Source of the DNA: Ostreococcus lucimarinus
Lineage: Eukaryota
Length of the DNA stretch: 64,000 bases
Strand: one strand, 5' to 3'
Assembly: GCA_000092065.1 (NCBI GenBank)
Contig: CP000585.1
The notes under the pieces were generated by a model. It searched no databases and was not told the DNA's origin. It saw only the letters and a list, made by a program, of their open reading frames with translations. A program made the position numbers and the translations under genes. Shown piece after piece: positions 11,098 through 51,963 of this stretch (position 1 is its first letter; each line of letters starts with the position of its first letter).

Positions 11098-11247
11098 ATG
11101 CCCGCACGCGCGCCGGCGAGGACGCGCGCGCCGGCGACGAGCGCGGAGACGCGCGCGAAAAGCGCGACGCGCGCGCGCGGAGACGCGCGCGACACGCGCG
11201 GCGCGGACGCGCGCGATGATGATTTAAACGAAAAAGATGACCGTTCG

Positions 11248-11280
<33 letters not shown>

Positions 11281-14200
11281 TGCGACGACGCGTGGGGCGT
11301 CGCGCGCGGCGAGCGAGACGTGCGCGCGGGAATGATACGCGTGCGGAGCACGGTGCCGCTGATCGTGAGCACGCTGTGCGTGGTGGTGACGGCGCTCATC
11401 GCGGTGTGCGCGCAGAGCTGGCACGTGCGCGAGACGGCGATGCGGTTGGCGAGCGTGCGATTGAGCGCGACGAGCGTGAAGCTCGGACCGACGACGAGAC
11501 GGTTGACAGCGCTCGAGGATGCGGTGAGGAGATTGGAGAGCGAGAAGGCGAGCGTGCGCGCGGTGGATGGGGTGAAGGCGACGGTGGAGGCGGAGCGCGC
11601 GGCGAACGCGGCGAACGCGGCGACGACGACGACGGACGCGAAGGTCGTCAAGACGGAGATGAAGGCGGAGTTGAAATCGGTTTTGGCGCAGATTGATGCG
11701 TTGAGTAAGCGACAAAATAGTTTCGTGACGACCGCGGAGCTTAAGAAGAGCAGTGGCGCTCTCAAGGCGGAGCTCGCGGAACTCGAAAAGACGGCCGCGG
11801 CGCTCGAAAAGAAGCAAGCGAACTTCGCGGCCAAGACGGAGCTCGCGTCGCTCGAGAAGACCACCGCGGCGCTCGACAAGGGACAAGCCAATTTCGTCAC
11901 CAAAGCGCAGCTTCAAAAGGTGAACGTCGCGAACGATCTCGCACTGTCTGCTGAGCGCTTACGAATCGACGACGCCATCAAGGAGGCCAAGTCGCTTCGA
12001 GACGCCATCGACGCCGTATCCAAGAGCTTGGCGCAGATTGATGCGTTGAGTAAGCGACAAAATAGTTTCGTGACGACCGCGGAGCTTAAGAAGAGCAGTG
12101 GCGCTCTCAAGGCGGAGCTCGCGGAACTCGAAAAGACGGCCGCGGCGCTCGAAAAGAAGCAAGCGAACTTCGCGGCCAAGACGGAGCTCGCGTCGCTCGA
12201 GAAGACCACCGCGGCGCTCGACAAGGGACAAGCCAATTTCGTCACCAAAGCGCAGCTTCAAAAGGTGAACGTCGCGAACGATCTCGCACTGTCTGCTGAG
12301 CGCTTACGAATCGACGACGCCATCAAGGAGGCCAAGTCGCTTCGAGACGCCATCGACGCCGTATCCAAGAGCTTGGCGCAGATTGATGCGTTGAGTAAGC
12401 GACAAAATAGTTTCGTGACGACCGCGGAGCTTAAGAAGAGCAGTGGCGCTCTCAAGGCGGAGCTCGCGGAACTCGAAAAGACGGCCGCGGCGCTCGAAAA
12501 GAAGCAAGCGAACTTCGCGGCCAAGACGGAGCTCGCGTCGCTCGAGAAGACCACCGCGGCGCTCGACAAGGGACAAGCCAATTTCGTCACCAAAGCGCAG
12601 CTTCAAAAGGTGAACGTCGCGAACGATCTCGCACTGTCTGCTGAGCGCTTACGAATCGACGACGCCATCAAGGAGGCCAAGTCGCTTCGAGACGCCATCG
12701 ACGCCGTATCCAAGAGCTTGGCGCAGATTGATGCGTTGAGTAAGCGACAAAATAGTTTCGTGACGACCGCGGAGCTTAAGAAGAGCAGTGGCGCTCTCAA
12801 GGCGGAGCTCGCGGAACTCGAAAAGACGGCCGCGGCGCTCGAAAAGAAGCAAGCGAACTTCGCGGCCAAGACGGAGCTCGCGTCGCTCGAGAAGACCACC
12901 GCGGCGCTCGACAAGGGACAAGCCAATTTCGTCACCAAAGCGCAGCTTCAAAAGGTGAACGTCGCGAACGATCTCGCACTGTCTGCTGAGCGCTTACGAA
13001 TCGACGACGCCATCAAGGAGGCCAAGTCGCTTCGAGACGCCATCGACGCCGTATCCAAGAGCCAGGACGTCTTCATCACGAATACTACTCTCCGACGAGT
13101 GGAGTCACAAATCGAAGCGCTGAAGAAGATGCAAGCAAAGAAGGGATTCTTCTCAACACGGCCGAAAGGGCCGGTCGTTTCCGACGAGCAGATTGCGATG
13201 CTCGAGGCCACGGTTGCTACTTTTGCGACACATTTGGCGGATTTGGAAAAGAACCAAGCCGACTTCGTGACCACAGCGCAACTGCAAAAGTTCGAGGGCG
13301 CTTCGGAGGAAATCAAGTCGCTCCAGAGGGAAATTCACGTTGTTTCCAAGAAGCAAGCCAACTACGTCAGCGTGGCGCAATTACAAAAGCTCGAAGTGGT
13401 GACGGATGAAATTAAATCGCTGCAGAGTGAGATTTCGGCGCTCGCTAAGACGCAAGACGAGTTTGCTATTCTCAGCGCGAGTCTTAAGGATGTTGAGAGT
13501 AAGATCGCGGCGTTGGCGGATGGTAAGAAGAAGACCGGGCTCCTCTCTAAGCTTTCGAAGAAGACAGACACCAAGGTCACCAACAAGCAACTTGTTGAGC
13601 TCGAGAACGCTGTCGCGACGTTGGAGAAGACTCAGACGAAATTCGCTTCGCTTGCGAGTTCACAGATCAGCACGTTGGAGTCTACTCTTGATGCGATTTC
13701 GCAGCAGCAATCCAGTGCGCTCACAGCTGCTGATTTGAAGAGTATTCAAAAGGCCATCACGGCGCTGGAGAAGAGTCAGGAAAGTTTCGCGACGACTGCA
13801 CAGCTACAGAAAGTGGATGCATCTCGAGAGATCAAGGCTTTGGAAGAAGCTTTAGCGGAGATTCTACAGAGTCAGCATTCGTTTGCGAACTCGACTGCCG
13901 TCGAAGAGCTTGAGACGAAAGTCATGGCACTCGAAGCTCGACAAAACGAAAAGCGCGGTGGGATGTTCAAGCGAAGCGCGAGCACCGACACCTCTGTCAC
14001 CAATAAGCAACTCAAGGCTTTAGAAGACACCATCGCGGCCCTGACGAAGAGTCAAGCGGACTTCGCCACGGTTACCCAGCTGAAAGAAAGTGCGCAGGCG
14101 CTTTCGCAACAGCAAGCCGGCGCGCTTACGGCGGCTGACTTGAAGGGCATTCAAAAAGCAGTCGCGTCGCTAGAAAAGAGTCAGAACGGTTTCGCGACGA

Positions 14201-16128
14201 CGGCGCAATTACAAAAGCTCGAAGTGGTGACAGATGAAATTAAATCGCTGCAGAGTGAGATTTCGGCGCTCGCTAAGACGCAAGACGAGTTTGCTATTCT
14301 CAGCGCGAGTCTTAAGGATGTTGAGAGTAAGATCGCGGCGTTGGCGGATGGTAAGAAGAAGACCGGGCTCCTCTCTAAGCTTTCGAAGAAGACAGACACC
14401 AAGGTCACCAACAAGCAACTCAAGGCTCTAGAAGACGCCATCGCGGCTCTGACGAAGAGTCAAGCGGACTTCGCCACGGTTACCCAGCTGAAAGAAAGTG
14501 CGCAGGCGCTTTCGCAACAGCAAGCCGGCGCGCTTACGGCGGCTGACTTGAAGGGCATTCAAAAAGCAGTCGCGTCGCTAGAAAAGAGTCAGAACGGTTT
14601 CGCGACGACGGCGCAATTACAAAAGCTCGAAGTGGTGACAGATGAAATTAAATCGCTGCAGAGTGAGATTTCGGCGCTCGCTAAGACGCAAGACGAGTTT
14701 GCTATTCTCAGCGCGAGTCTTAAGGATGTTGAGAGTAAGATCGCGGCGTTGGCGGATGGTAAGAAGAAGACCGGGCTCCTCTCTAAGCTTTCGAAGAAGA
14801 CAGACACCAAGGTCACCAACAAGCAACTCAAGGCTCTAGAAGACGCCATCGCGGCTCTGACGAAGAGTCAAGCGGACTTCGCCACGGTTACCCAGCTGAA
14901 AGAAAGTGCGCAGGCGCTTTCGCAACAGCAAGCCGGCGCGCTTACGGCGGCTGACTTGAAGGGCATTCAAAAAGCAGTCGCGTCGCTAGAAAAGAGTCAG
15001 AACGGTTTCGCGACGACGGCGCAATTACAAAAGCTCGAAGTGGTGACAGATGAAATTAAATCGCTGCAGAGTGAGATTTCGGCGCTCGCTAAGACGCAAG
15101 ACGAGTTTGCTATTCTCAGCGCGAGTCTTAAGGATGTTGAGAGTAAGATCGCGGCGTTGGCGGATGGTAAGAAGAAGACCGGGCTCCTCTCTAAGCTTTC
15201 GAAGAAGACAGACACCAAGGTCACCAACAAGCAACTCAAGGCTCTAGAAGACGCCATCGCGGCTCTGACGAAGAGTCAAGCGGACTTCGCCACGGTTACC
15301 CAGCTGAAAAAGGTTGCCGCCACGTTGGATGCGTTGAAAAACGTGCACGACAATTATGCGACGACGAAACTTGTGAAGAACTTGGAACTCAAGCTGAACC
15401 AGGTGATCAAAACGAGCGGGGGGCTGTCGACGACGCAGACAAATTTGGTGGAGTTAGAGCAAAGAGCGATGGAGCGCGTTGAGAGTTATATTAAAACAAT
15501 CCCGAAAGATACCTCGAGAAAGCTCACGAAACACATCGAGGAGGCTTCGAGTTTGTGGTTTGCGGACAGAACTGGAAGGCAGGACTTCGCGCTCGCTTCA
15601 GGTGGCGGGCGCGTCGTCGGTCACTCTCAGCTTTCGCCGTTTGTAGGCCGTGGCGACGGTCCCATCACGTCGGTGCTTTCGTTCCTTCAATCCGGAGTGC
15701 ATCCGAAGAGCGACGAGTGGTTACTCACGCCGTCTTTGGAGCAACCAGGGGATTGTATCGCGTTGCATTCGTCGACCGGTTATGTTGATGTTCGTTTGCG
15801 TCAGTCTGTGAAAGTGGACGCGGTCACGCTCGAGCACGCGAATAGCTTGAACGCGTACGACTTGCACAGCGCGCCACGAGATGTACAAGTATACGGTTGG
15901 CACGCACGCAAGAAGAGTTGCAAGCATAGCAAACCGCCCAAGTCGTTGATTCCTCTCGGCAACTACACGTACAGTATCAACCGCGGAAGCGTACAAACTT
16001 TCGACGTGGTGTCACCGCAGACCGTCGACCATGTGCGTCTAGTGGTGAAGAACAATCAAGGGCACCAGAAGTGGACGTGCCTGTACCGGTTCCGAGTACA
16101 CGGCGTGCCAGAACGAGTCGAAGCGTGA
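11098..16128 (+). CDS. Giant coiled-coil membrane protein with a C-terminal SUN (Sad1/UNC-84)-like domain; a predicted inner-nuclear-membrane/LINC-type protein
   Basis: This is a single 1676-aa ORF. Its N-terminus is an Arg/Asp-rich low-complexity stretch. A single hydrophobic span (PLIVSTLCVVVTALIAVCA) sits near residue 90. About 1300 aa of heptad-rich sequence rich in Ala, Leu, Lys, Glu and Gln follows, built from tandem repeats. The C-terminal roughly 190 aa are globular and end ...QGHQKWTCLYRFRVHGVPE. This resembles SUN-domain termini (...YRxRVHG) and the architecture resembles SUN proteins. Confidence 0.65.
11683..13062 (+). repeat. 345-bp tandem repeat, 4 nucleotide-identical copies (115-aa coiled-coil unit) inside the SUN-like gene
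   Basis: The string ttggcgcagattgatgcgttgagtaagcgacaaaatag recurs at about 11683, 12028, 12373 and 12718. Three identical 111-aa antisense ORFs spaced exactly 345 bp apart in the track (11913, 12258, 12603) confirm nucleotide identity. The unit encodes AQIDALSKRQNSFVTTAELKK...KEAKSLRDAIDAVSKSL. Confidence 0.9.
13370..15300 (+). repeat. 408-bp tandem repeat: three nucleotide-identical copies plus one diverged leading copy (136-aa coiled-coil unit) inside the SUN-like gene
   Basis: Identical antisense ORFs recur at 14181, 14589 and 14997 (period 408 bp). The unit encodes ...QLQKLEVVTDEIKSLQSEISALAKTQDEFAILSASLKDVESKIAALADGKKKTGLLSKLSKKTDTKVTNKQLKALEDAIAALTKSQADFATVTQLKESAQALSQQQAGALTAADLKGIQKAVASLEKSQNGFATTA. 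A diverged copy starts at about 13370. Confidence 0.9.
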
Positions 16129-34237: not shown

Positions 34238-35638
34238 TCAGTGAAGGTACATGGCGACGACGACGGTGACGTTGTCGCTCGATCCTCGATGCATACTCGT
34301 ATCCAGAAGTTCCTGGGACGCGGCCGTACAGGCCGCTTCGATGGCTTTCTTGTCGGTCGATGTACACTTGCCTTCGCTCAAGACGCCGCGCGTGGCGAGT
34401 ATTTTGCGAGCAATGTCACCCGCCTCTTGATCTCGAATGACGTCCCACATGCCGTCAGAGGCGAGAATAATGAAATTGATATCTTCGGTGAGCTCGTAAC
34501 GCGACACGTCTGGTTCTGCGGTGACGCCAGAGTCTTTCGGTCGCTTGAAATCGATGTCCCCGAGCGAACGCGAGACGGCCAAAGCCGCTCGCACGGGTTT
34601 GTACGGATGATCCGCGATGACTCGCCAGCAGCCGCAAAATTCAATCTTGCCCCCCACTGCGGTTATTCTGCGCCGTTCATTCGACATCGACGGCTTGTGG
34701 TCTTCGGTCATGGCGCGAGTGCGTCCATCAGCGTAGCTGACGACTGCTCTAGAGTCGCCAGCATGCGCTGTGAAGAGCGCGCCGCCGATTTGCAAGACGC
34801 ACACCGCCGTGCTCCCGTCTCGCCTGCCCTCCGCGGCGGTGCTGTTGAGAATTTCGTCGTCGCAATCCATGTACATTTTCTTCAAAGACGTTTCCATATC
34901 AACGTTGAACCGCGTGAGTCTTTCCGGGCACGACGGCGACGAATCTTGTAAGAGCACGTCTGGCGCGAGAAAAGTGTGCATGCGTTCGCTTGCAAACTGC
35001 GCCGCCCAGTCACCGTTGTGACCATCGTACACGCCCAAAAACGAACGACGAACGCCATCGCAACCCGTCAACCCAAAAGGTTTCAGCTCAGTCACGGCGC
35101 TGTACCTGTCCTCCATGTACGCCCGCTGTCCTTGTTCGAAAGCCACGCCGACGACGACCTGGGCGCCCACCAAAGGAATATTCGCCTCGCCATCCGCCGT
35201 CGCCGTCGCCGCCTCGCTCACTTCATCGGACAACGGCGGACTCGCGCGCGCGGAATCTAAATCTCTCGCTCCCCCAGAACTCGTAGATTCCGATCCCATA
35301 TCGACATCCTCGCGCGCTTTCGCGCTCTCATCCGTCGTCGCGCGCGCCTTTTCGCGTCGCTCTCGTCGACTCTTCCCGTGCTTCCCCTTCCTCCGGCGTT
35401 TCTCTCGCGCCTCCCACGCCTCCGCCGCCGCGTTCGCCTCCCCCCGTCTCTTCTCCTGACCCACCGCGCGCGCTTCATTCGTCTCGCGCGCCTCCTCCTC
35501 GCTCGACGACCCCGCGCCTCGGCGTTCGCGCGTCGCCTTCGCCCCGTCCCTCGCGCCCTCATCCCTCATCACCCCCTCCCGTCCTCGTCCGGCGTCCTCC
35601 ATCGCTCCGCTTTCGCTCGCGTCCGCGCGAACCATCAT
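34238..35638 (-). CDS. Protein phosphatase 2C (PPM family)
   Basis: There is a true ATGATG at 35638. PP2C motifs run in order: RAYMEDRYS, FLGVYDGHNGDWAAQF, TAVCVLQIGGALFTAHAGDSRAV, ILASDGMWDV and GSSDNVTVVVA. Confidence 0.85.
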   Translation of the reverse strand: MMVRADASESGAMEDAGRGREGVMRDEGARDGAKATRERRGAGSSSEEEARETNEARAVGQEKRRGEANAAAEAWEAREKRRRKGKHGKSRRERREKARATTDESAKAREDVDMGSESTSSGGARDLDSARASPPLSDEVSEAATATADGEANIPLVGAQVVVGVAFEQGQRAYMEDRYSAVTELKPFGLTGCDGVRRSFLGVYDGHNGDWAAQFASERMHTFLAPDVLLQDSSPSCPERLTRFNVDMETSLKKMYMDCDDEILNSTAAEGRRDGSTAVCVLQIGGALFTAHAGDSRAVVSYADGRTRAMTEDHKPSMSNERRRITAVGGKIEFCGCWRVIADHPYKPVRAALAVSRSLGDIDFKRPKDSGVTAEPDVSRYELTEDINFIILASDGMWDVIRDQEAGDIARKILATRGVLSEGKCTSTDKKAIEAACTAASQELLDTSMHRGSSDNVTVVVAMYLH

Positions 35639-36006
35639 CGATCGTCGTCCCGCGCCGAGCGCGTCTCCCGCCGCCGCCGTCGCGACGCGCGTCGCGCGCG
35701 CGGATTCGAACGTTCACGATGCCGCGCCGCCGGTCCGCGTTCGCGCGCGTCGCGCGTCGCGCGCCGTCGCGCGTCGCGCGCGCGCGTCGAGCGTCGCGAG
35801 ACGCGCGCGCTCGAGTCGATCGCGCGCTCTTCGCGCGCGTCGCGCGTCGCGTCGCGCGTCGCGGAGCGTCGACCGGCGGCGCGCGCGCGGCGGGAAAAGC
35901 GCGCGAAGAGCGCGCGCGCGCGCGATCGGGGGTCGTATTGAAACACCCGGAAGTACTATCAACGCGCACGCCCGAGATGCGGATCACGCGCCAGCGCTGG
36001 CGGCCC

Positions 36007-36405
36007 GTGCGCGCTGTGTCCGTATAAAGACGCGCGAAGGACCCATGTGCGCGCTGTGTCCGTATAAAGACGCGCGAAGGACCCATGTGCGCGCTGTGTC
36101 CGTATAAAGACGCGCGAAGGACCCATGTGCGCGCTGTGTCCGTATAAAGACGCGCGAAGGACCCATGTGCGCGCTGTGTCCGTATAAAGACGCGCGAAGG
36201 CCCGTGTGCGCGCTGTGTCCGTATAAAGACGCGCGAAGGCCCGTGTGCGCGCTGTGTCCGTATAAAGACGCGCGAAGGACCCATGTGCGCGCTGTGTCCG
36301 TATAAAGACGCGCGAAGGCCCGTGTGCGCGCTGTGTCCGTATAAAGACGCGCGAAGGCCCGTGTGCGCGCTGTGTCCGTATAAAGACGCGCGAAGGCCCG
36401 TGTGC
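36007..36405 (+). repeat. 40-bp minisatellite, about 10 tandem copies in two variants (40-bp ...gaaggacccatgt... and 39-bp ...gaaggcccgtgt...); each copy contains TATAAAG
   Basis: Direct reading: gtgcgcgctgtgtccgtataaagacgcgcgaaggacccat repeats head-to-tail from 36007. Copies 5, 6, 8, 9 and 10 carry the ggcccgtg variant. The array ends about 60 bp before the ATG of the downstream + gene. It sits in the 826-bp divergent intergenic region between PP2C (-) and the TPR-J-GlcNAcT gene (+). Confidence 0.9.
36007..36405 (+). promoter_or_regulatory. Array of canonical TATA-box motifs (TATAAAG, + orientation) upstream of the gene starting at 36465
   Basis: Each minisatellite unit carries ccgTATAAAGacg. 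The most proximal copy is about 90 bp upstream of the ATG at 36465. Whether these function as TATA boxes is an inference. Confidence 0.4.
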
Positions 36406-36464
36406 GACGAACGTCGACCGGCGCGAGCGTTTCGCGAGCGTTTCGAACGCCAGACGACGACGCC

Positions 36465-39122
36465 ATGGCGCGCGTCGACGTCGAGCGCGCGGCGCGCGCG
36501 TCGAGCGCGCGCGAGGCGAGCGACGCGGGACGACGCGCGCTCGCGATGGGGGAACACGCGCTCGCGCGGGCGTTTTACGACGACGCGCTGGCGATGATGA
36601 CGGAAGACGCGACGGACGAGGCGAGGGACGAGCGGGAGGGGCGACGACGGCGCGCGGAGGTGATGGCGAATCAGAGCGCGTGCGCGCTGGCGGTCGAGGC
36701 GTGGGACGACGCGATGGAGCGCGCGGAGCGGGCGATCGCGTGCGATGAGGGGTACGCGAAGGCGCACGCGAGACGGGCGGCGGCGCTGCGAGGGAAGCGG
36801 GAGTACGCGCGCGCGAGGGAGAGTTTGAAGGTGTGTCGCGCGTTGCTCGCGCGGGAGGGGGAGACGAAGATGATTCGTGACGTGGACGCGATGGTGGCGG
36901 AGATAGACGCGGACGAGGCGCGAGGAGAACAAGCTGCACGCGTGGGGATGCAAGTAAAGATGGGATCGAAGGCGCAGGCGAAACCAAACTTTTCAGCGGC
37001 GACGACGAAGGCGAAGAAGGTGGTGACTTTCGATCCAAAGCTCGACATAGATTGCGACGAGGATGTGTTCGATTCGCGAGCGTCTCAACCGCCGAGTCGG
37101 CGTTCGTCGTCGAAGCCCATGCTGATGGATCTAGGCGTGTTGGCGGTGGAAAAGGCGATCGAGATGCAACGCGCCGTCGTCGAAGCTAGAGTCGAGGGAG
37201 GCTTCGAGCACAAGCGATGTAAGATGTGCGGCAACGTGTGTCACGCAAAACTCACCGCGTGTTCGTCGTGCTGCTTGCCGCTTGTATCGGTGGATTCTTA
37301 CGAGCCGGCGACTTTGCCGCGCGCGGGCGCTGAGGCGATTTACGAGAGCGATTCTGACGACGGTGAGGAGAACGCGACGACGACGAGCGCTGAGAAAGAC
37401 GCTGAGCCGTCGTATCTCGACTCTGATCCTTGGTGGGTGAGATATTACACCCGCTCGGCGCTGACCGAGCCGACGCACTCACGTGGTTTGGACCCGGCGC
37501 TTCGATCGAGTTACGCCGCGCTCGACGTTGCGCCGGGGAGCGACGAAGTCACTGTGCGCGCGGCGTTTAGAAACGCGCTCGCGCGAGCGCACCCCGACGC
37601 CGGCGGATCCGCAAAGGAGCTAGACGTGGTAGCGAGAGCTTATGACGCGATATCTCTCGACTTTTGGCGACATGATGAAGGCGCAGCGCGATTGCGTTTG
37701 CAGTCTCGAAGGCTCGCCGACGGATCGATTGAATTCTTCGACTCGGCGAATGAAGACATATTCGTCGTACTCGAAGTTTACAGAAACAGAGAAGCAGAGC
37801 ACACGTTGAAACGGTTATTCAGCGAAGCTTCCGATCCTTCGCGCGTCTACGTCGGCGTTACATGGCAATACAAGTCCACGACGCCGCCGCCCGACGCGCT
37901 CGGCGCGCGCATCGACCGCTTGCACACGAACGTCTACGTACTGACAGAGGAAATCCAAAAGCGCGCGGCGGACGTGAAAGATCCGGTAGAGCAGGAGAAA
38001 TATTTGACTAAAATGCGACGCTTGCAACTCAAAGCTCAGCGAACGGAAGACGCGGAGGAAAAGAGGTGTCACTCAGCAAGGGTGCTCGAAGCTCGTTTCC
38101 GAGATCACGTGCGAGAGACTCACATGCCGTGGGACGCTTCGGAAGGTCCATCGTACGCGCGACATTTAGCGATGCGCAAATGGGGTGGGGAAAAGTATGT
38201 TTTGCACATTGACGCCATGACGGTCGTCGACAAGGGATGGGATGAAATCTTGGTGTCTGAACTCGAACGCTGCGGCGACGACAAACGCGTACTCACGGCT
38301 GCGCCGTTAGGATACGAGCTTAAAACTCAACCGGTCGTCGAAGAAGAGACGTTCAGACAAATGTATCAGACCGACGTGTACGGCACGATCAAAGATCGGC
38401 TGCCAGCCGTGAGTGCTCTCGGTGAAATCGATCCCGCGCGCGCGCCCGCGATTACGTGCGCGCGCGAATTCGGCGAGTCGTTGTTCCGCACGCACGCCAG
38501 GCAACTCGCGGAGGTTCCGAGCGAGCCGACGCCGGCGCTCTTCTTCAACAGTAGTTTTGCGTTCGCGCGCGCCGAGGCTTTCGTCAGAGACGCCCCGCCC
38601 GACGCCCACGCGCCGTTCTTACATCTAGGGGAAGACTTGAGCGCGAGCGCGAGGCTGTACACGCGCGGCTGGAACTTGTGCACGCCCGCGCGCGTTCCCG
38701 TGTTACGCTGCTACTCGAACGCGCCGCGCGCGATGTGGATGGAAGATCACCGTTCGGGTAAAATGCTGTACGCCGACGCGCGTTTCGGCGTCGGTAACGA
38801 ATCCGACGCGGCGCGGCGAGAATTTCTCAATTTACTCTCGCGCCGGCGCGTCCTGCAGTTGGTCGCCGCCGCGGACGACAGCTCGCAGACCTCCCGGGAC
38901 GATCCCGTGCGTTTCACGCGCGCCTACGGCGCCGGGCGCGACAGATCCATCGAGTCATTCATCGAGCACATCGGCGTCGACTTCACCGCGAAACGAATCT
39001 CGACGCGCGCCGCGTGCGGCGGACACGACGGCGCGTTCGTCGCGTCTTCGAAATCGCTTCCCGCGCCGTTCGCGAGCGCTCGGACGGGCCCGAGCGAGCG
39101 CGCCGCGCGTCGGTATGTGTAA
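36465..39122 (+). CDS. Multidomain protein: N-terminal TPR-like region + central J (DnaJ) domain + C-terminal GlcNAc-transferase-like domain (Pfam 'Glycosyltransferase (GlcNAc)'/GT60-like)
   Basis: The start is at MARVDVERAAR. Residues 30-200 are Ala-rich helical repeats with TPR-like periodicity (...HALARAFYDDALAMM...YAKAHARRAAALRGKREYARARESL...). The J domain is ...YAALDVAPGSDEVTVRAAFRNALARAHPDAGGSAKELDVVARAYDAIS (HPD tripeptide). The C-terminal domain is IFVVLEVYRNREAEHTLKRLFSEASDPSRVYVGVTWQ ... GPSYARHLAMRKWGGEKYVLHIDAMTVVDKGWDEIL. This matches, from memory, the conserved blocks of the Skp1-type GlcNAc-transferase family. Confidence 0.6.
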   Translation: MARVDVERAARASSAREASDAGRRALAMGEHALARAFYDDALAMMTEDATDEARDEREGRRRRAEVMANQSACALAVEAWDDAMERAERAIACDEGYAKAHARRAAALRGKREYARARESLKVCRALLAREGETKMIRDVDAMVAEIDADEARGEQAARVGMQVKMGSKAQAKPNFSAATTKAKKVVTFDPKLDIDCDEDVFDSRASQPPSRRSSSKPMLMDLGVLAVEKAIEMQRAVVEARVEGGFEHKRCKMCGNVCHAKLTACSSCCLPLVSVDSYEPATLPRAGAEAIYESDSDDGEENATTTSAEKDAEPSYLDSDPWWVRYYTRSALTEPTHSRGLDPALRSSYAALDVAPGSDEVTVRAAFRNALARAHPDAGGSAKELDVVARAYDAISLDFWRHDEGAARLRLQSRRLADGSIEFFDSANEDIFVVLEVYRNREAEHTLKRLFSEASDPSRVYVGVTWQYKSTTPPPDALGARIDRLHTNVYVLTEEIQKRAADVKDPVEQEKYLTKMRRLQLKAQRTEDAEEKRCHSARVLEARFRDHVRETHMPWDASEGPSYARHLAMRKWGGEKYVLHIDAMTVVDKGWDEILVSELERCGDDKRVLTAAPLGYELKTQPVVEEETFRQMYQTDVYGTIKDRLPAVSALGEIDPARAPAITCAREFGESLFRTHARQLAEVPSEPTPALFFNSSFAFARAEAFVRDAPPDAHAPFLHLGEDLSASARLYTRGWNLCTPARVPVLRCYSNAPRAMWMEDHRSGKMLYADARFGVGNESDAARREFLNLLSRRRVLQLVAAADDSSQTSRDDPVRFTRAYGAGRDRSIESFIEHIGVDFTAKRISTRAACGGHDGAFVASSKSLPAPFASARTGPSERAARRYV

Positions 39123-39194
39123 AGCGCGCGTCTCCGGTCGCCAATCCATCACTGCACCGCGCGCTCGTCGATTCGCGCGCGCGCGGTCGTCGCG

Positions 39195-40301
39195 ATGCGA
39201 TCGTCGGCGTCGGCGTCGCGCGCGCCGCCGCGCGCGCGACGGCGCGCGCGCGCGCGGCGCGCGGCGCGCGATGGACGCGCCGCGACGCGTCGCGACGCCG
39301 GCGCGCGCGCGCTCGCGGACGTCGCGCGCGTCGTCGCGCTCGTCGGGACGCTCGGCGCGAGCGCGGCGGAACGGTTCGAGGCGCGCGCGCCGGACGACGG
39401 CGTCGCGAGCGCGGTGGCGAGCGCGGTGGCGCTCGTCGCGGGCGCGGCGGGGATGGCGATGAGCCTGGAGCGCGAGACGGACGCGCGCGAGGCGGCGCTC
39501 GCGGATAAAGTGCGCGCGCAGGCGGACGCGATGGCGGACGCGGCGTGGGAGAAGATCGAGGCGAGCGAGGCGAGCGCGGAGGCGGTGAGGCGCGACGTCG
39601 CCGCGCGAGGGGTGGCGCGAGTGAACGGAGTGATGCGGGAGGACACGGCGAGGGCGACGGAGGCGTACGTGCGCGAGACGCTGCGGACGAACGACGCGGG
39701 AGGGGATGGGAGGAATTTATCCGTGGAGTCGTTCGGGAACGTGTATTGCAAGAAGAATAGGTGGGATTTGAAACTCGCGTACGACGCGCCCGTGCGCGCG
39801 GCGCTGCGGGAGTGCGTGGCGTCGATGGGGGAAGCGCTGACGGCGGTGTGCGGCGCGGATGCGAAACTCGTCGAGCTCGCGGCGTTGGTGAGCGACCCGG
39901 GGTCGACGCGACAGCCGGTGCACCCGGACACGGCGTACAGGAGAGATCCCTCCGTGTTCACGTGCTTCGTGGCGCTGCAGGACGTCGAGCGAGACATGGG
40001 TCCGACGCTGTTCATCCCAGGAACGAACAACGCGCAGGCGCACGTCGAATTTAGGGAGGGTAACGAACGCGAAGGGCCAGTGTTTCGTCGACCGTACGAG
40101 CTCGGCGTCATCTCTCGCGGCGATGCGACTTTGTTTGATAGCAGAACGTTGCACTGCGGAACGGAAAACGACAGCTCGCGACGACGAGTGTTGTTTTACT
40201 TTTCGTTTCAACGAGCGGACGGCGACAATCCAAACGCCGCGATTAGCACGATTAGAACCGAGTTGCGTGACAAGTACACGCTCGCAGATTTATTGGCTTA
40301 A
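39195..40301 (+). CDS. Phytanoyl-CoA dioxygenase (PhyH)-family 2-oxoglutarate/Fe(II) oxygenase, paralog 1
   Basis: The HxD...H facial triad is in TRQPVHPDTAY...MGPTLFIPGTNN...H...DATLFDSRTLHCGTENDSSRRRVLFYFSF, typical of the PhyH family. The N-terminal roughly 90 aa are Arg/Ala-rich. The start codon is uncertain; an alternative M lies near 39458. Confidence 0.7.
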   Translation: MRSSASASRAPPRARRRARARRAARDGRAATRRDAGARALADVARVVALVGTLGASAAERFEARAPDDGVASAVASAVALVAGAAGMAMSLERETDAREAALADKVRAQADAMADAAWEKIEASEASAEAVRRDVAARGVARVNGVMREDTARATEAYVRETLRTNDAGGDGRNLSVESFGNVYCKKNRWDLKLAYDAPVRAALRECVASMGEALTAVCGADAKLVELAALVSDPGSTRQPVHPDTAYRRDPSVFTCFVALQDVERDMGPTLFIPGTNNAQAHVEFREGNEREGPVFRRPYELGVISRGDATLFDSRTLHCGTENDSSRRRVLFYFSFQRADGDNPNAAISTIRTELRDKYTLADLLA

Positions 40302-40306
40302 GATGT

Positions 40307-41401
40307 TTAATGATTATACGACGACGAATCCATGGACGCCATGCGTCCCGCCGTGAGGCGCATGTCGAAGACGTCGCTTCGTATGCTCCACTCCGCGCCC
40401 GCATTTCTACGCGTCGGGGCGTCAGGAATGGGAGGTTTCAAAAACGTCAGCGTCATCAACGCGCGACGCCCGTATTCGTTCGCACCGCCTTGGTGAAATG
40501 TGCGCGCATCGTACAACACGGCATCGCCTTTACGCAACTCGGCGTCGCAACACCTCGATTTGGCGAGTCGCGCAAACTGTTCTTCGTTCCACTTCGTCAC
40601 CGGAAACGCGTCGTGTGACGCCTTGTCTTGCGTGCCGAGCACAAAACACGTCGGTCCCATCTCCGGGATGACGTCTTGTAGCGCTATGAACAAAGAATAC
40701 AGCGGCGCGTGCGGCGCGTCGAACGCCACATCCGGATGCAAAACTTGTCTATCCGCCCCTCGTTCTGTCGCCAGCACGCTCATCTCCACCATCATCGCCT
40801 CCGCAGTTGCGTCTTCGACGTGCTCTAATATCGAATTCACCCCTCCTCGACCGCACGCTCGCAACAGCAAATCACGCGTGGCCCCATCGAATCCGAGCTT
40901 GACGTCGGTGCGCCGCAACGCGTCCCCGTACGTCGCCTTGACGGAATCACAAATCACGTTCAACTCCCCGAGCACCGCATCACACGCATCGTGCGGGACG
41001 ACATCTTTCAAAAATACCGCCCCATCGCGCTTCAACACCGCCGCGGCGTCGCGCGCGTCGTCATTCGTAATTATCCTTCGCGCCGCCGGCGCCGCCGCGA
41101 GCGCCCCGCCTCGCACCATCGCCTCGCGCTGCGCCGCGCTCTCCACTCTCAGGTACGTCGCGAGCGCGACTTCGGGCGATGAAGGTCCGAGTCCGTCGTC
41201 TTCACCGCCGTCCACGGCGTCGAGCGCCGGATCGACGACGGCGGTGACAAAGTCACTGATTCGTCTCCATACATTCGTCCGCGTCATCGTCCTATCGCGT
41301 CGCGACGTCGCGGCGCTCGTCGACGCGCGCCGCGACCGCGAGACGCGATCGCTCGACGCCGCGCGCGCGGCGACGGCTGGCGACGCGACGACGCGCGTCA
41401 T
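40307..41401 (-). CDS. Phytanoyl-CoA dioxygenase (PhyH)-family 2-oxoglutarate/Fe(II) oxygenase, paralog 2
   Basis: DRQVLHPDVAFD...MGPTCFVLGTQD...H...DAVLYDARTFHQGGANEYGRRALMTLTF is collinear with paralog 1 (same HPD...GPT...G(T)...LxDxRTxHxG...N motifs). It is convergent with paralog 1; the stops are 6 bp apart. Confidence 0.7.
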   Translation of the reverse strand: MTRVVASPAVAARAASSDRVSRSRRASTSAATSRRDRTMTRTNVWRRISDFVTAVVDPALDAVDGGEDDGLGPSSPEVALATYLRVESAAQREAMVRGGALAAAPAARRIITNDDARDAAAVLKRDGAVFLKDVVPHDACDAVLGELNVICDSVKATYGDALRRTDVKLGFDGATRDLLLRACGRGGVNSILEHVEDATAEAMMVEMSVLATERGADRQVLHPDVAFDAPHAPLYSLFIALQDVIPEMGPTCFVLGTQDKASHDAFPVTKWNEEQFARLAKSRCCDAELRKGDAVLYDARTFHQGGANEYGRRALMTLTFLKPPIPDAPTRRNAGAEWSIRSDVFDMRLTAGRMASMDSSSYNH

Positions 41402-49878: not shown

Positions 49879-51873
49879 CTAGCGCGAATCTACGGCGACG
49901 CGACTTTCGGCTAGCAGCTCGCGCAGGGCTCGGTTTAAGACGACGATGAGCTCGGTGAAATCCGGTCGAGCGTCGGGGGCGGTTTGCCAAGCGGGCACGA
50001 TGACGTCGTCGACCAACGCGCGGACGACGACGTCGTCGCGCGCGAACGGCGGCGCGTCCAGCGGTAGACGCTGCGATTGGATGGCGACGGCGAAGATGAT
50101 TTGCATGTGGTTCGCGAACCACTCCCAGGGGATCGACCGCGCGAGTGATTCCCACAGAAGGACGGAGAAGGAGAAGACGTCGCATTTGGTCGTCACCGCG
50201 TCGGCGTCGCCGTGAAAAAGCTCTGGAGCCATGTACGCGGGCGTTCCGGCGGTTCCGGCGGACGCGCCGCCGGCGCTCGTCGCCGAACCGCCGGCGCTGA
50301 GCAACGTCCGCTCAAGCGCGCGCGCGATGCCGAAATCCGCAACTTTGGCGCCACGGCCGTTGAGAAGCACGTTGTGCGATTTCAAGTCTCGGTGAACGAT
50401 GCATCTGGAGTGCAAATACGCCATCGCCTGCGCTACGTCGAGCGCTATCCTCACGACGTCGTCTAGACTCACGTCGTACTGCTTGTCTTGGTGAAGAAGC
50501 GCGTGCAAGCTTCCTCCGTCCATCATTTCCTCGACTATACAAAGATGCGGCAGCTTGAGACACGCTCCAAACATGCGCACGATTTTTGGATGTCGCACCG
50601 CGCTCAACACGGCGACTTCTCTCACGAACGTCTTCAAATCGCTCTTTCCAGCACCGGGTGGGACACCGTGTAACTTTTTCACCGCGACGACGCGTTTGTT
50701 CCACTTTCCCACGTACACCGCACCGTAAGCGCCCTGACCAATTAGTCTTCCGAGTTTGATGTTGCTGAGATGAATTTCAACGACGTCGTCGTCGTCGTCG
50801 GAAACCGTATTCGCATCCTTTGCGCTCTCCGCGTACGTCGCGAGCGACGCTTCGAATAAATCACCGTTGGTAGTTTTCTTTGCGCCTCGACGCGATGGAT
50901 GTGAGCCAGTGTTTATACGAGCCGTATCATCACCAGCGCGAGCGACCACGCCCTCCAAATCGTAATCTTTTGTTCTGAAGCATTGACCCGGTAACATGAG
51001 TGTATTTTTACGCTTCGCCGGCGCGATGATTTCATCGACGTCGACGTTTGCGAGCGGCACATCGTCGTCTTTACCAAACATGCACGATATCAACTGACGG
51101 ATAATTTCAATCATGAATACTAAGACGACCAGACAAGCGACGAGAAGCGCGCTCATCGTGCTTCCGTTTCTTAACCACGCCGTGCCGCCCGCCGCCGCTT
51201 GTGCGATGACGCCACCCTGCGCGACGACTGTTGGTCCACCCTGCGCGACGACTGTCGGTGGTTTTGGCGGCGCCGGTGGCGCTGGTGGAGGAAACGGTGG
51301 AGGCGATGGGACTACTCGTCCACAGCAGAACTGGTACTCTCTCCGAGCACACGTTCCGTCATCGATGAAGCTCACGGCGGAGTTCTCCATAAAGACCGGC
51401 GAGTTGCACCAGACACCGTTCACGGCGACTCGAAGGATGTTCGAGGGAATGTCGCCATTTGTGACGTAGCCAGTGAATGAAAATTGTCTTCGAGGGATGC
51501 CAAGTTGATTTACGACGCGTGCTGGCTGCCCTGAAGGCCCGCCTGGATTGATGAGCAACGCGTCCTCGACTCTGCCTTCGTGCACGCCCTGCCCGTTCGG
51601 AAAGATCCAAGCGACTTGCCAGCTCGCCAGTGCCTCTGGATGAACACTCGTCATTGTAAACGTACCGGTGAATAGATTTAAATCATCGTCGTCGCTCTCT
51701 GCCGAGAGCTCCGTGGCGTACGCGACATCTATGCTGCACCTCGCGCAAGGTCGCGTCGAGTCGTCGCACTCGCGACAAGTTTGCGCCAAGCTGCTCCGTA
51801 TAGGCAAGACGAGCGCGCCGAGGGCGCCTACAATTATCCGTACCGAGACATAACCCCGATGACATTTCTTCAT
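49879..51873 (-). CDS. Receptor-like protein kinase: signal peptide, extracellular Pro-rich domain, one transmembrane helix, intracellular Ser/Thr/Tyr kinase domain
   Basis: The start is at MKKCHRGYVSVRIIVGALGALVLP (signal peptide). A PSPPPFPPPAPPAPPKPP segment follows, then a TM helix (LLVACLVVLVFMIEII). The kinase has the expected subdomains: IGQGAYGAVYVGKW...VAVKKL (ATP-binding Lys), HRDLKSHNVLL (catalytic loop), KVADFGIAR (DFG), TPAYMAPE, and DVFSFSVLLWE. Confidence 0.75.
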   Translation of the reverse strand: MKKCHRGYVSVRIIVGALGALVLPIRSSLAQTCRECDDSTRPCARCSIDVAYATELSAESDDDDLNLFTGTFTMTSVHPEALASWQVAWIFPNGQGVHEGRVEDALLINPGGPSGQPARVVNQLGIPRRQFSFTGYVTNGDIPSNILRVAVNGVWCNSPVFMENSAVSFIDDGTCARREYQFCCGRVVPSPPPFPPPAPPAPPKPPTVVAQGGPTVVAQGGVIAQAAAGGTAWLRNGSTMSALLVACLVVLVFMIEIIRQLISCMFGKDDDVPLANVDVDEIIAPAKRKNTLMLPGQCFRTKDYDLEGVVARAGDDTARINTGSHPSRRGAKKTTNGDLFEASLATYAESAKDANTVSDDDDDVVEIHLSNIKLGRLIGQGAYGAVYVGKWNKRVVAVKKLHGVPPGAGKSDLKTFVREVAVLSAVRHPKIVRMFGACLKLPHLCIVEEMMDGGSLHALLHQDKQYDVSLDDVVRIALDVAQAMAYLHSRCIVHRDLKSHNVLLNGRGAKVADFGIARALERTLLSAGGSATSAGGASAGTAGTPAYMAPELFHGDADAVTTKCDVFSFSVLLWESLARSIPWEWFANHMQIIFAVAIQSQRLPLDAPPFARDDVVVRALVDDVIVPAWQTAPDARPDFTELIVVLNRALRELLAESRVAVDSR

Positions 51874-51963
51874 CTGCGCGCGCGAGCATGTCACGACGAG
51901 ACCCGCTCGAGATGGCGAACCGTTACATTCGAGGCGACCTCGCCGACGCAAACGTCAGCCGCC

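Follow-up and report, generated by a model that had tools for sequence, protein, structure and literature searches.

What ten copies of a TATA box, stacked in a single orientation directly upstream of a protein-coding gene, might do for that gene is the question raised by a minisatellite in Ostreococcus lucimarinus. The window (the whole stretch of 64,000 nucleotides that was analysed) was densely packed, with 39 ORF-genes and 81% coding sequence in a rough gene map, and its divergent intergenic regions had a median length of 173 bp. The region bearing the array was among the longest of these, extending over 826 bp (35639-36464) between two divergently transcribed genes. The array accounted for 48% of this region, in line with an earlier note on this DNA, where it was described as filling half of it. 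The array and its two neighbours are:

34238 to 35638, minus strand: divergent PP2C phosphatase gene, 466 aa (Pfam PP2C, 3e-50)
36007 to 36406, plus strand: the minisatellite
36465 to 39122, plus strand: GlcNAc-transferase-family gene, 885 aa (PF11397, 3.4e-105)

The labels PP2C and TPR-J-GlcNAcT, which the earlier note had given to these genes, were borne out for the phosphatase and the GlcNAc transferase, but only in part for the remainder. The J domain contains an HPD motif but was weak, with an E value of 0.0019 that does not reach the Pfam cut-off, while Pfam matched TPRs only in orthologues of the GlcNAc-transferase-family protein, the N-terminus of the protein in the window being TPR-like. 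Both neighbours belonged to 90%-identity clusters with O. lucimarinus CCE9901 proteins, clusters for which MMETSP transcripts of Ostreococcus also exist, and the window very probably comes from this reference strain. Indeed, the ORF on the plus strand was 100% identical to XP_001417797 of CCE9901 over the 819 aa of that model, and the PP2C ORF was identical to XP_001418032 except for a 24-residue stretch that is spliced out in the RefSeq model. Both RefSeq models are shorter than the ORFs, XP_001417797 starting at Met67 of the 885-aa ORF and XP_001418032 at Met114 of the 466-aa ORF. Support for the longer PP2C form comes from many gene calls in metagenomes and from an MMETSP transcript whose ORF has 466 aa. 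The gene order GH31, PQ-loop, PP2C, GlcNAc-T, PhyH, PhyH, SET was common to the recovered loci.

The array consists of ten complete head-to-tail units (36007-36401) followed by 5 bp (GTGCG) of an eleventh, and with units within the range of ~10-100 bp it is a minisatellite. Tandem Repeats Finder reported a period of 40 with 10.1 copies, 98% matches and a score of 730 for 36007-36406, as well as an alternative higher-order period of 118 bp with a score of 754. The 34-nt unit core GTGCGCGCTGTGTCCGTATAAAGACGCGCGAAGG had ten mismatch-free copies in the 64-kb window, all on the plus strand and all within the array, compared with no matches in 100 dinucleotide-preserving shuffles. From core to core, the spacing along the array was 40, 40, 40, 40, 39, 39, 40, 39 and 39, reflecting two unit types: the A unit of 40 bp, ending in GGACCCAT, and the B unit of 39 bp, ending in GGCCCGT (..AAGGCCCGT). 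The order of units in this reference array was AAAABBABBB. The copy number of about ten, the two variants and their order were thus exactly as previously noted, and the unit length of 40 bp given at that time holds for A but not for B. The units and blocks of units are:

36007, 36047, 36087, 36127, 36167, 36206, 36245, 36285, 36324 and 36363, plus strand: starts of the ten units
36007 to 36166, plus strand: units 1-4, all of A type, with an ATG at each junction (36045, 36085, 36125, 36165)
36127 to 36362, plus strand: units 4-9, reading (A B B)(A B B), period 118, score 754
36363 to 36401, plus strand: unit 10, the proximal unit, of B type, a candidate working core promoter and the same in every haplotype seen

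The occurrence of ABB in units 4-6 and again in units 7-9 accounts for the 118-bp period and suggests a higher-order duplication of a three-unit block, which agrees with the stepwise duplication proposed earlier. A trace of the very first duplication may be preserved at the edges of the array. The 8-mer GGCCCGTG at its left edge (36002-36009, plus strand) is identical to the 8-mer at its right edge (36395-36402), from which it follows that the single-unit ancestor had a short direct repeat one unit length apart. Direct repeats of this kind are the classic starting point for slippage, and this one was the likely substrate for the first duplication. Two other readings of the repeat were rejected. 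Periods of 40 and 39 bp shift the reading frame, and the minus-strand ORFs of 160-464 aa that run through the array are artefacts of the repeat, which argues against a coding repeat. Likewise, a hairpin or cruciform within the unit was discarded, as the single-strand DNA folded no better than shuffles (z -1.15, -0.35 and -1.08).

TATAAAG was found on the plus strand in 10/10 units, where it counted as a TATAWAW match in the orientation of the gene. In the window as a whole, TATAAAG was observed 12 times compared with 0.77 expected, and ten of these 12 occurrences were in the array. Canonical TATAWA sites in the intergenic DNA of the window were limited to the array and one other site (50912, minus strand); the other upstream regions displayed at most looser AT-rich patches. 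Within the window, the 8-mer TGTGTCCG was likewise confined to the array. The elements of the candidate promoter are:

36023, 36063, 36103, 36143, 36183, 36222, 36261, 36301 and 36340, plus strand: starts of the nine distal TATAAAG boxes
36371 to 36378, plus strand: conserved 8-mer TGTGTCCG, found in all ten units immediately before the TATA box
36379 to 36385, plus strand: proximal TATAAAG, 86 bp upstream of the ATG (36465)
36402 to 36464, plus strand: leader of 63 bp between array and ATG, without a variable site among 12 haplotypes
36283 to 36597, plus strand: 104-codon frame opened by the upstream ATG at the unit-7 junction, overlapping the main ATG out of frame

The earlier note was correct in placing a plus-oriented TATAAAG in every unit, and its estimate of ~90 bp between the nearest of these and the ATG of the plus-strand gene proved to be exactly 86 bp (36379 versus 36465). 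The usual distance from a TATA box to the transcription start is ~30 bp. Judging from this distance, the proximal TATA box most likely sets a transcription start at ~36405-36412, with a predicted 5′ UTR of ~55-60 nt. Starts further upstream would encounter the ATGs that are present at the A-type junctions (36045, 36085, 36125, 36165 and 36283). Since the A-type junctions carry these ATGs, only the three or four proximal units (7-10) of the reference allele would give mRNAs free of upstream ATGs, and the frame opened at 36283 would be a burden on any mRNA started further upstream.

Other alleles of the array were recovered by exact-protein look-ups and one metagenome scan, and an allele was regarded as complete when it had both unique flanks and no N gap. 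The numbers of units were as follows:

10 units: the window allele
7 units: L021
6 units: L026 and L033
5 units: L006, L007 and L008
4 units: L020 and L027
3 units: L029
2 units: L009, L013, L014, L034 and L036 (short-read metagenome assemblies, in which these may be under-counts)

The differences between alleles of 5, 6, 7 and 10 units are alone enough to establish that the array is polymorphic. Copy-number variation between strains, the check that had been suggested, was thus found, with 2, 3, 4, 5, 6, 7 and 10 units in differing orders at one locus. The order of units was A B A' A B in L007 and L008 and A A B A A B in L026, and the array of L006 was composed of three units of rarer variant types followed by a terminal A B. 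There were about eight rarer unit variants, one of which has a 1-bp deletion that converts TATAAAG to TATAAG, and this unit with a damaged TATA box persists in two haplotypes. Furthermore, several copy numbers were found within each of the two left-flank haplogroups, GGCGGCCC and GGCGGACC, showing that gains and losses of units have recurred. No single-unit allele was present among the 17 complete alleles.

We next consider where the unit came from. The orthologous loci of distant relatives were fetched via homologues of the plus-strand gene. Of these relatives, L016 and L022 are distant Ostreococcus species that carry the element. L016 (orthologue in the 60-62% identity range) contained the element once, as GTGTGTCCG-gtgtgtg-TATATAAT...AGGACC...GTGTG, with TGTGTCCG followed by TATATAAT. 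L022 (orthologue 62% identical) contained GTGCGCG-tacgtgtcg-TGTGTCCG plus an AT-rich non-canonical box in two copies, which lie in a 128-bp tandem duplication of its own (83% identity; 2690-2945 of that locus) containing the GTGCGCG..TGTGTCCG element. In both L016 and L022, TGTGTCCG was restricted to the intergenic region orthologous to that of the array, its strand matching that in the window. As TGTGTCCG is rare and confined to this region, the unit can be traced to an old cis-element of the promoter, of which it is an amplified copy. In addition, L017 had TATA-like boxes elsewhere in the orthologous region. In L015, the nearest sister lineage (orthologue 89% identical), neither a TATA box nor a recognisable unit was found at the homologous position. 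The TATA box and the unit are thus absent in L015 although the gene is kept, which shows that the TATA box is not indispensable for expressing the gene. From these comparisons of sequences, the ancestral element, GTGCGCG..TGTGTCCG plus an AT-rich box, appears to have been lost or degraded in the L015 lineage, and to have been duplicated independently in two lineages, namely the lineage with the array and that of L022.

What L015 retains lies upstream of the array:

35890 to 35897, plus strand: GCGGGAAA, also present in L015
35924 to 35953, plus strand: intergenic block GATCGGGGGTCGTATTGAAACACCCGGAAG, the sole intergenic part still nearly identical in L015

The upstream block kept in L015 reads GATCGGGTGTCGTATTGAAACACCCGGAAG, and ACACCCGG also has two copies upstream of the orthologue in L025. 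The block in the window contains an imperfect inverted repeat (GGGTGT..ACACCC) and is probably an upstream regulatory element shared by the divergent gene pair. The E2F consensus is TTTSSCGC, and we take GCGGGAAA to match its reverse complement. This may be a putative sign of cell-cycle control for one of the two genes.

In 12 haplotypes, not one site varied in the last unit or the leader of 63 bp, compared with 29 variable columns in the 300 bp left of the array; the sample is a modest one, its haplotypes having been fetched through near-identical protein sequences. Long flanks were available for nine haplotypes, which had 13 SNP and 10 gap columns in the 250 bp to the left of the array, and 0-3 SNP columns per 250 bp in coding sequence. 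If last unit and leader, together 102 bp, varied at the rate of the upstream intergenic DNA, they should show about five differences. The proximal unit and the leader therefore look constrained.

We lean, with moderate confidence, towards the idea that the array is a promoter VNTR, in other words an amplified core-promoter module of which the proximal unit would be a working TATA promoter and the extra units would modulate the output. The gene's ancestral core-promoter module, consisting of GTGCGCG..TGTGTCCG (a probable factor-binding site) and then directly the TATA box, would have been amplified by replication slippage or unequal exchange. In the invariant proximal copy, the TATAAAG at -86 would recruit TBP/TFIID, and transcription of the GlcNAc-transferase-family gene would start ~55-60 nt ahead of its ATG. 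The one to nine further copies would provide extra in-register sites for TBP and the factor, and would probably alter promoter strength and add start sites at 39-40-bp steps. Moreover, the distance between the core promoter and the shared upstream regulatory block would grow by 39-40 bp with each extra unit.

Several other readings of the array have to be weighed against this one. The earlier note had allowed that the array could be a satellite or transposon footprint, and had named dispersal of the 40-mer as evidence for a generic satellite. Nothing beyond the repetitive nature of the sequence speaks for a dispersed satellite or for the footprint or remnant of a mobile element. There was no further copy of the unit in the 64-kb window outside the array, and the only two contigs matched by the 21-mer GTGTCCGTATAAAGACGCGCG in the metagenome collection were both the array locus. 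A viral origin was rejected as well: the 15-mer TGTGTCCGTATAAAG occurred once each in 47 IMG/VR contigs, but with unrelated flanks (7-15 of 43 further positions match), which amounts to chance. The array is thus locus-specific within the window, the metagenome collection and the viral contigs. No specific inverted repeats bound it, the matches being CG-rich and of low complexity only, and single-copy sequence homologous to the unit occupies the corresponding position in other species. We consider a dispersed or mobile origin exceedingly unlikely, and hold the idea that copy number was inflated or invented by misassembly to be just as improbable. It is true that short-read assemblies break or have N gaps at the array (L001-L005, L010-L012, L028, L030-L032 and L035), with ten contigs stopping inside it and three scaffolds having N gaps there, and that the 2-unit alleles might be collapsed. 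However, many samples independently gave assemblies with 3-7 units between the two unique flanks. Collapse of the array in long assemblies, which would have spoken against it, was not seen, as the chromosome-scale contigs keep 5-6 units (L006, L007, L008 and L026, 835-841 kb, compared with 847,696 bp for the CCE9901 chromosome record). Several Logan contigs of 2.8-3.1 kb begin exactly 88 nt before the ATG (36377), and these were considered as transcript 5′ ends. This was rejected because a 10.5-kb genomic contig (L011) starts there too. Position 36377 is the first 31-mer with a unique flank base, so these contig ends are graph breaks and not RNA ends, just what a genuine repeat should produce in a k=31 graph.

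It is also very unlikely that the array is a series of snRNA-type (type 3, USE plus TATA) promoters for RNA polymerase III. In O. lucimarinus the USE is CCCRTAA, and the TATA-containing type 3 promoters of green algae are Pol III targets (PMC8287931). The algal unit resembles such promoters in having a CCCRT-containing motif ~15-20 nt before the TATA box: its junction, CCC(A/G)TGT, lies 15 nt before the TATA box, and the A/G difference between the unit variants falls on the R of the USE consensus. The near absence of canonical TATA boxes from the remaining intergenic DNA of the window would also fit. In contrast to type 3 promoters, however, the match to the USE (CCCATGT or CCCGTGT) covers only 5/7 positions, which is chance level in a 40-mer. 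The array is followed by a protein-coding ATG after just 63 bp, rather than by a small RNA gene. The stretch 35950-36470 has no T run of at least four on either strand, and hence no terminator. Neither the window nor the six orthologous loci matched an RNA family in Rfam at the gathering threshold, with only miRNA-like noise below it in the CG-rich part upstream of the array. A more serious competitor is a neutral minisatellite, in which only the proximal unit, or none, would matter and the other copies would be drifting products of slippage. This is quite possible, although we do not think it probable. Copy number ranges freely from 2 to 10 in many internal orders, the element is entirely missing in the sister lineage L015, the unit with the damaged TATA box is tolerated, and variation within units is scattered without the TATA box being clearly spared. 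Against this stands that every unit contains in full an element that is conserved between species with orthologues of only ~60% identity, and that the 17 complete alleles include none with a single unit. The units lie 90-450 bp from the ATG, compared with a median divergent spacer of 173 bp, and all are hence promoter-proximal. In yeast, moreover, the number of promoter-repeat units alters expression, according to the work cited in PMC3887541. The amplified core-promoter module remains the reading that we prefer. A further elaboration is that of a contingency-type promoter, in which reversible gain and loss of modules would act as a population-level rheostat for the GlcNAc-transferase-family protein and alleles of 2-10 units would be kept by fluctuating selection. 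We regard this as unlikely. Glycosyltransferase expression has been linked to virus resistance in Ostreococcus, and prasinovirus infection would be one candidate selective pressure.

In the literature we came across no previous account of this array, or of minisatellites or promoter minisatellites of Ostreococcus. Promoter VNTRs are already known as a class, and what characterises the algal case is that the repeated units are duplicated core-promoter modules. The human INS VNTR and the MAOA upstream VNTR are polymorphic, lie a few hundred bp upstream of a gene, and have allele lengths that correlate with transcription; the INS case is cited in PMC3039753. The algal array is likewise a polymorphic minisatellite a few hundred bp upstream of a gene, but the INS and MAOA units carry factor-binding or G-rich motifs without a TATA box, and are enhancer-like rather than duplicated core promoters. 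The spacer promoters of rDNA in Xenopus and Arabidopsis are tandem upstream promoter duplicates of variable copy number that recruit the transcription machinery. These resemble the algal array in that the promoter sequence of a gene is tandemly duplicated upstream of the working promoter. However, they serve RNA polymerase I and a multi-copy family with much longer units, whereas the array has 40-bp units and precedes a single-copy Pol II gene. The variable promoter repeats of Saccharomyces cerevisiae are reportedly mostly short and AT-rich, and are said to act by nucleosome exclusion. Unlike these, the algal unit is a GC-rich module of 39-40 bp in which a complete TATA box is combined with a putative factor site that is conserved. 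According to the account of Vinces et al. (2009) given in PMC3887541, tandem repeats are present in the promoters of about a quarter of yeast genes, whose expression can change when the number of units varies. The repeats of both organisms are tandem, located in promoters and variable in copy number between strains; by that same account, unit number in yeast changes expression and nucleosome positioning, whereas for the algal array we infer the effect on expression. A close likeness in form is offered by MSY2, a minisatellite upstream of human DDX3Y, in which the TATA box lies in one repeat and the mapped start in the next (PMC3039753). The MSY2 unit is single-copy in mouse and tandem in primates (PMC3039753), and the unit of the algal array, too, was amplified in tandem from what more distant species have as a single copy. 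In MSY2 the TATA box is near-perfect and the start follows ~30 nt later, and upstream starts give long 5′ UTRs that affect translation. MSY2 differs in having ~100-bp units in 3-4 copies of nearly fixed number, at ~0.9 kb from the ATG in a distal tissue-specific promoter, whereas the algal array, highly polymorphic with its 2-10 units, lies right against the proximal promoter.

If copy number sets expression, this locus would be a natural and compact case of promoter strength tuned by whole core-promoter modules, in a eukaryotic genome that is among the smallest and most densely packed with genes and has few canonical TATA boxes elsewhere. Such tuning, which the earlier note had suggested for a multi-TATA promoter, is plausible, and gains indirect support from the occurrence of the element at the orthologous position in L016 and L022 and from the lack of variation in the proximal unit and leader. 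The range of 2-10 units among alleles in natural populations and the apparently independent duplication of the element in two lineages are further points of note. Whatever its function, the array is a highly polymorphic, PCR-sizable strain and population marker for O. lucimarinus, and it offers genetic tools for Ostreococcus a modular promoter series that already exists. It is also a spot at which short-read assemblies of O. lucimarinus systematically break.

Some further observations were made in the same window. At 36465-41401, and in the syntenic loci L005-L008 and L015-L017, the PF11397 gene was always followed by two PF05721 genes (PhyH-type 2-oxoglutarate dioxygenase). We take this placing of a hydroxylase beside a GlcNAc transferase to be reminiscent of the Skp1 hydroxyproline glycosylation pathway. 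At ~38900-39400 (2500-3000 bp right of the array), the nine haplotypes had 10-17 variable columns per 250 bp, compared with 0-3 in the neighbouring coding sequence. This jump in SNP density covers the 3′-terminal part of the GlcNAc-T gene together with the short gap that separates it from the first of these PhyH genes. A 1676-aa ORF on the plus strand (11098-16128) contains internal repeats at 11683-13062 and 13374-15309, with a 345-bp unit in 4.0 copies of 100% identity and a 408-bp unit in 4.7 copies of 83% identity. The perfect match between four 115-codon copies suggests that they were amplified very recently or are still being homogenised, or possibly that the assembly is at fault. Lastly, the longest stretch of the rough gene map without a called ORF-gene, 1778 bp at 50186-51963, in which the one intergenic TATAWA site outside the array (50912) is located, may hold a hidden intron-containing or non-coding gene.
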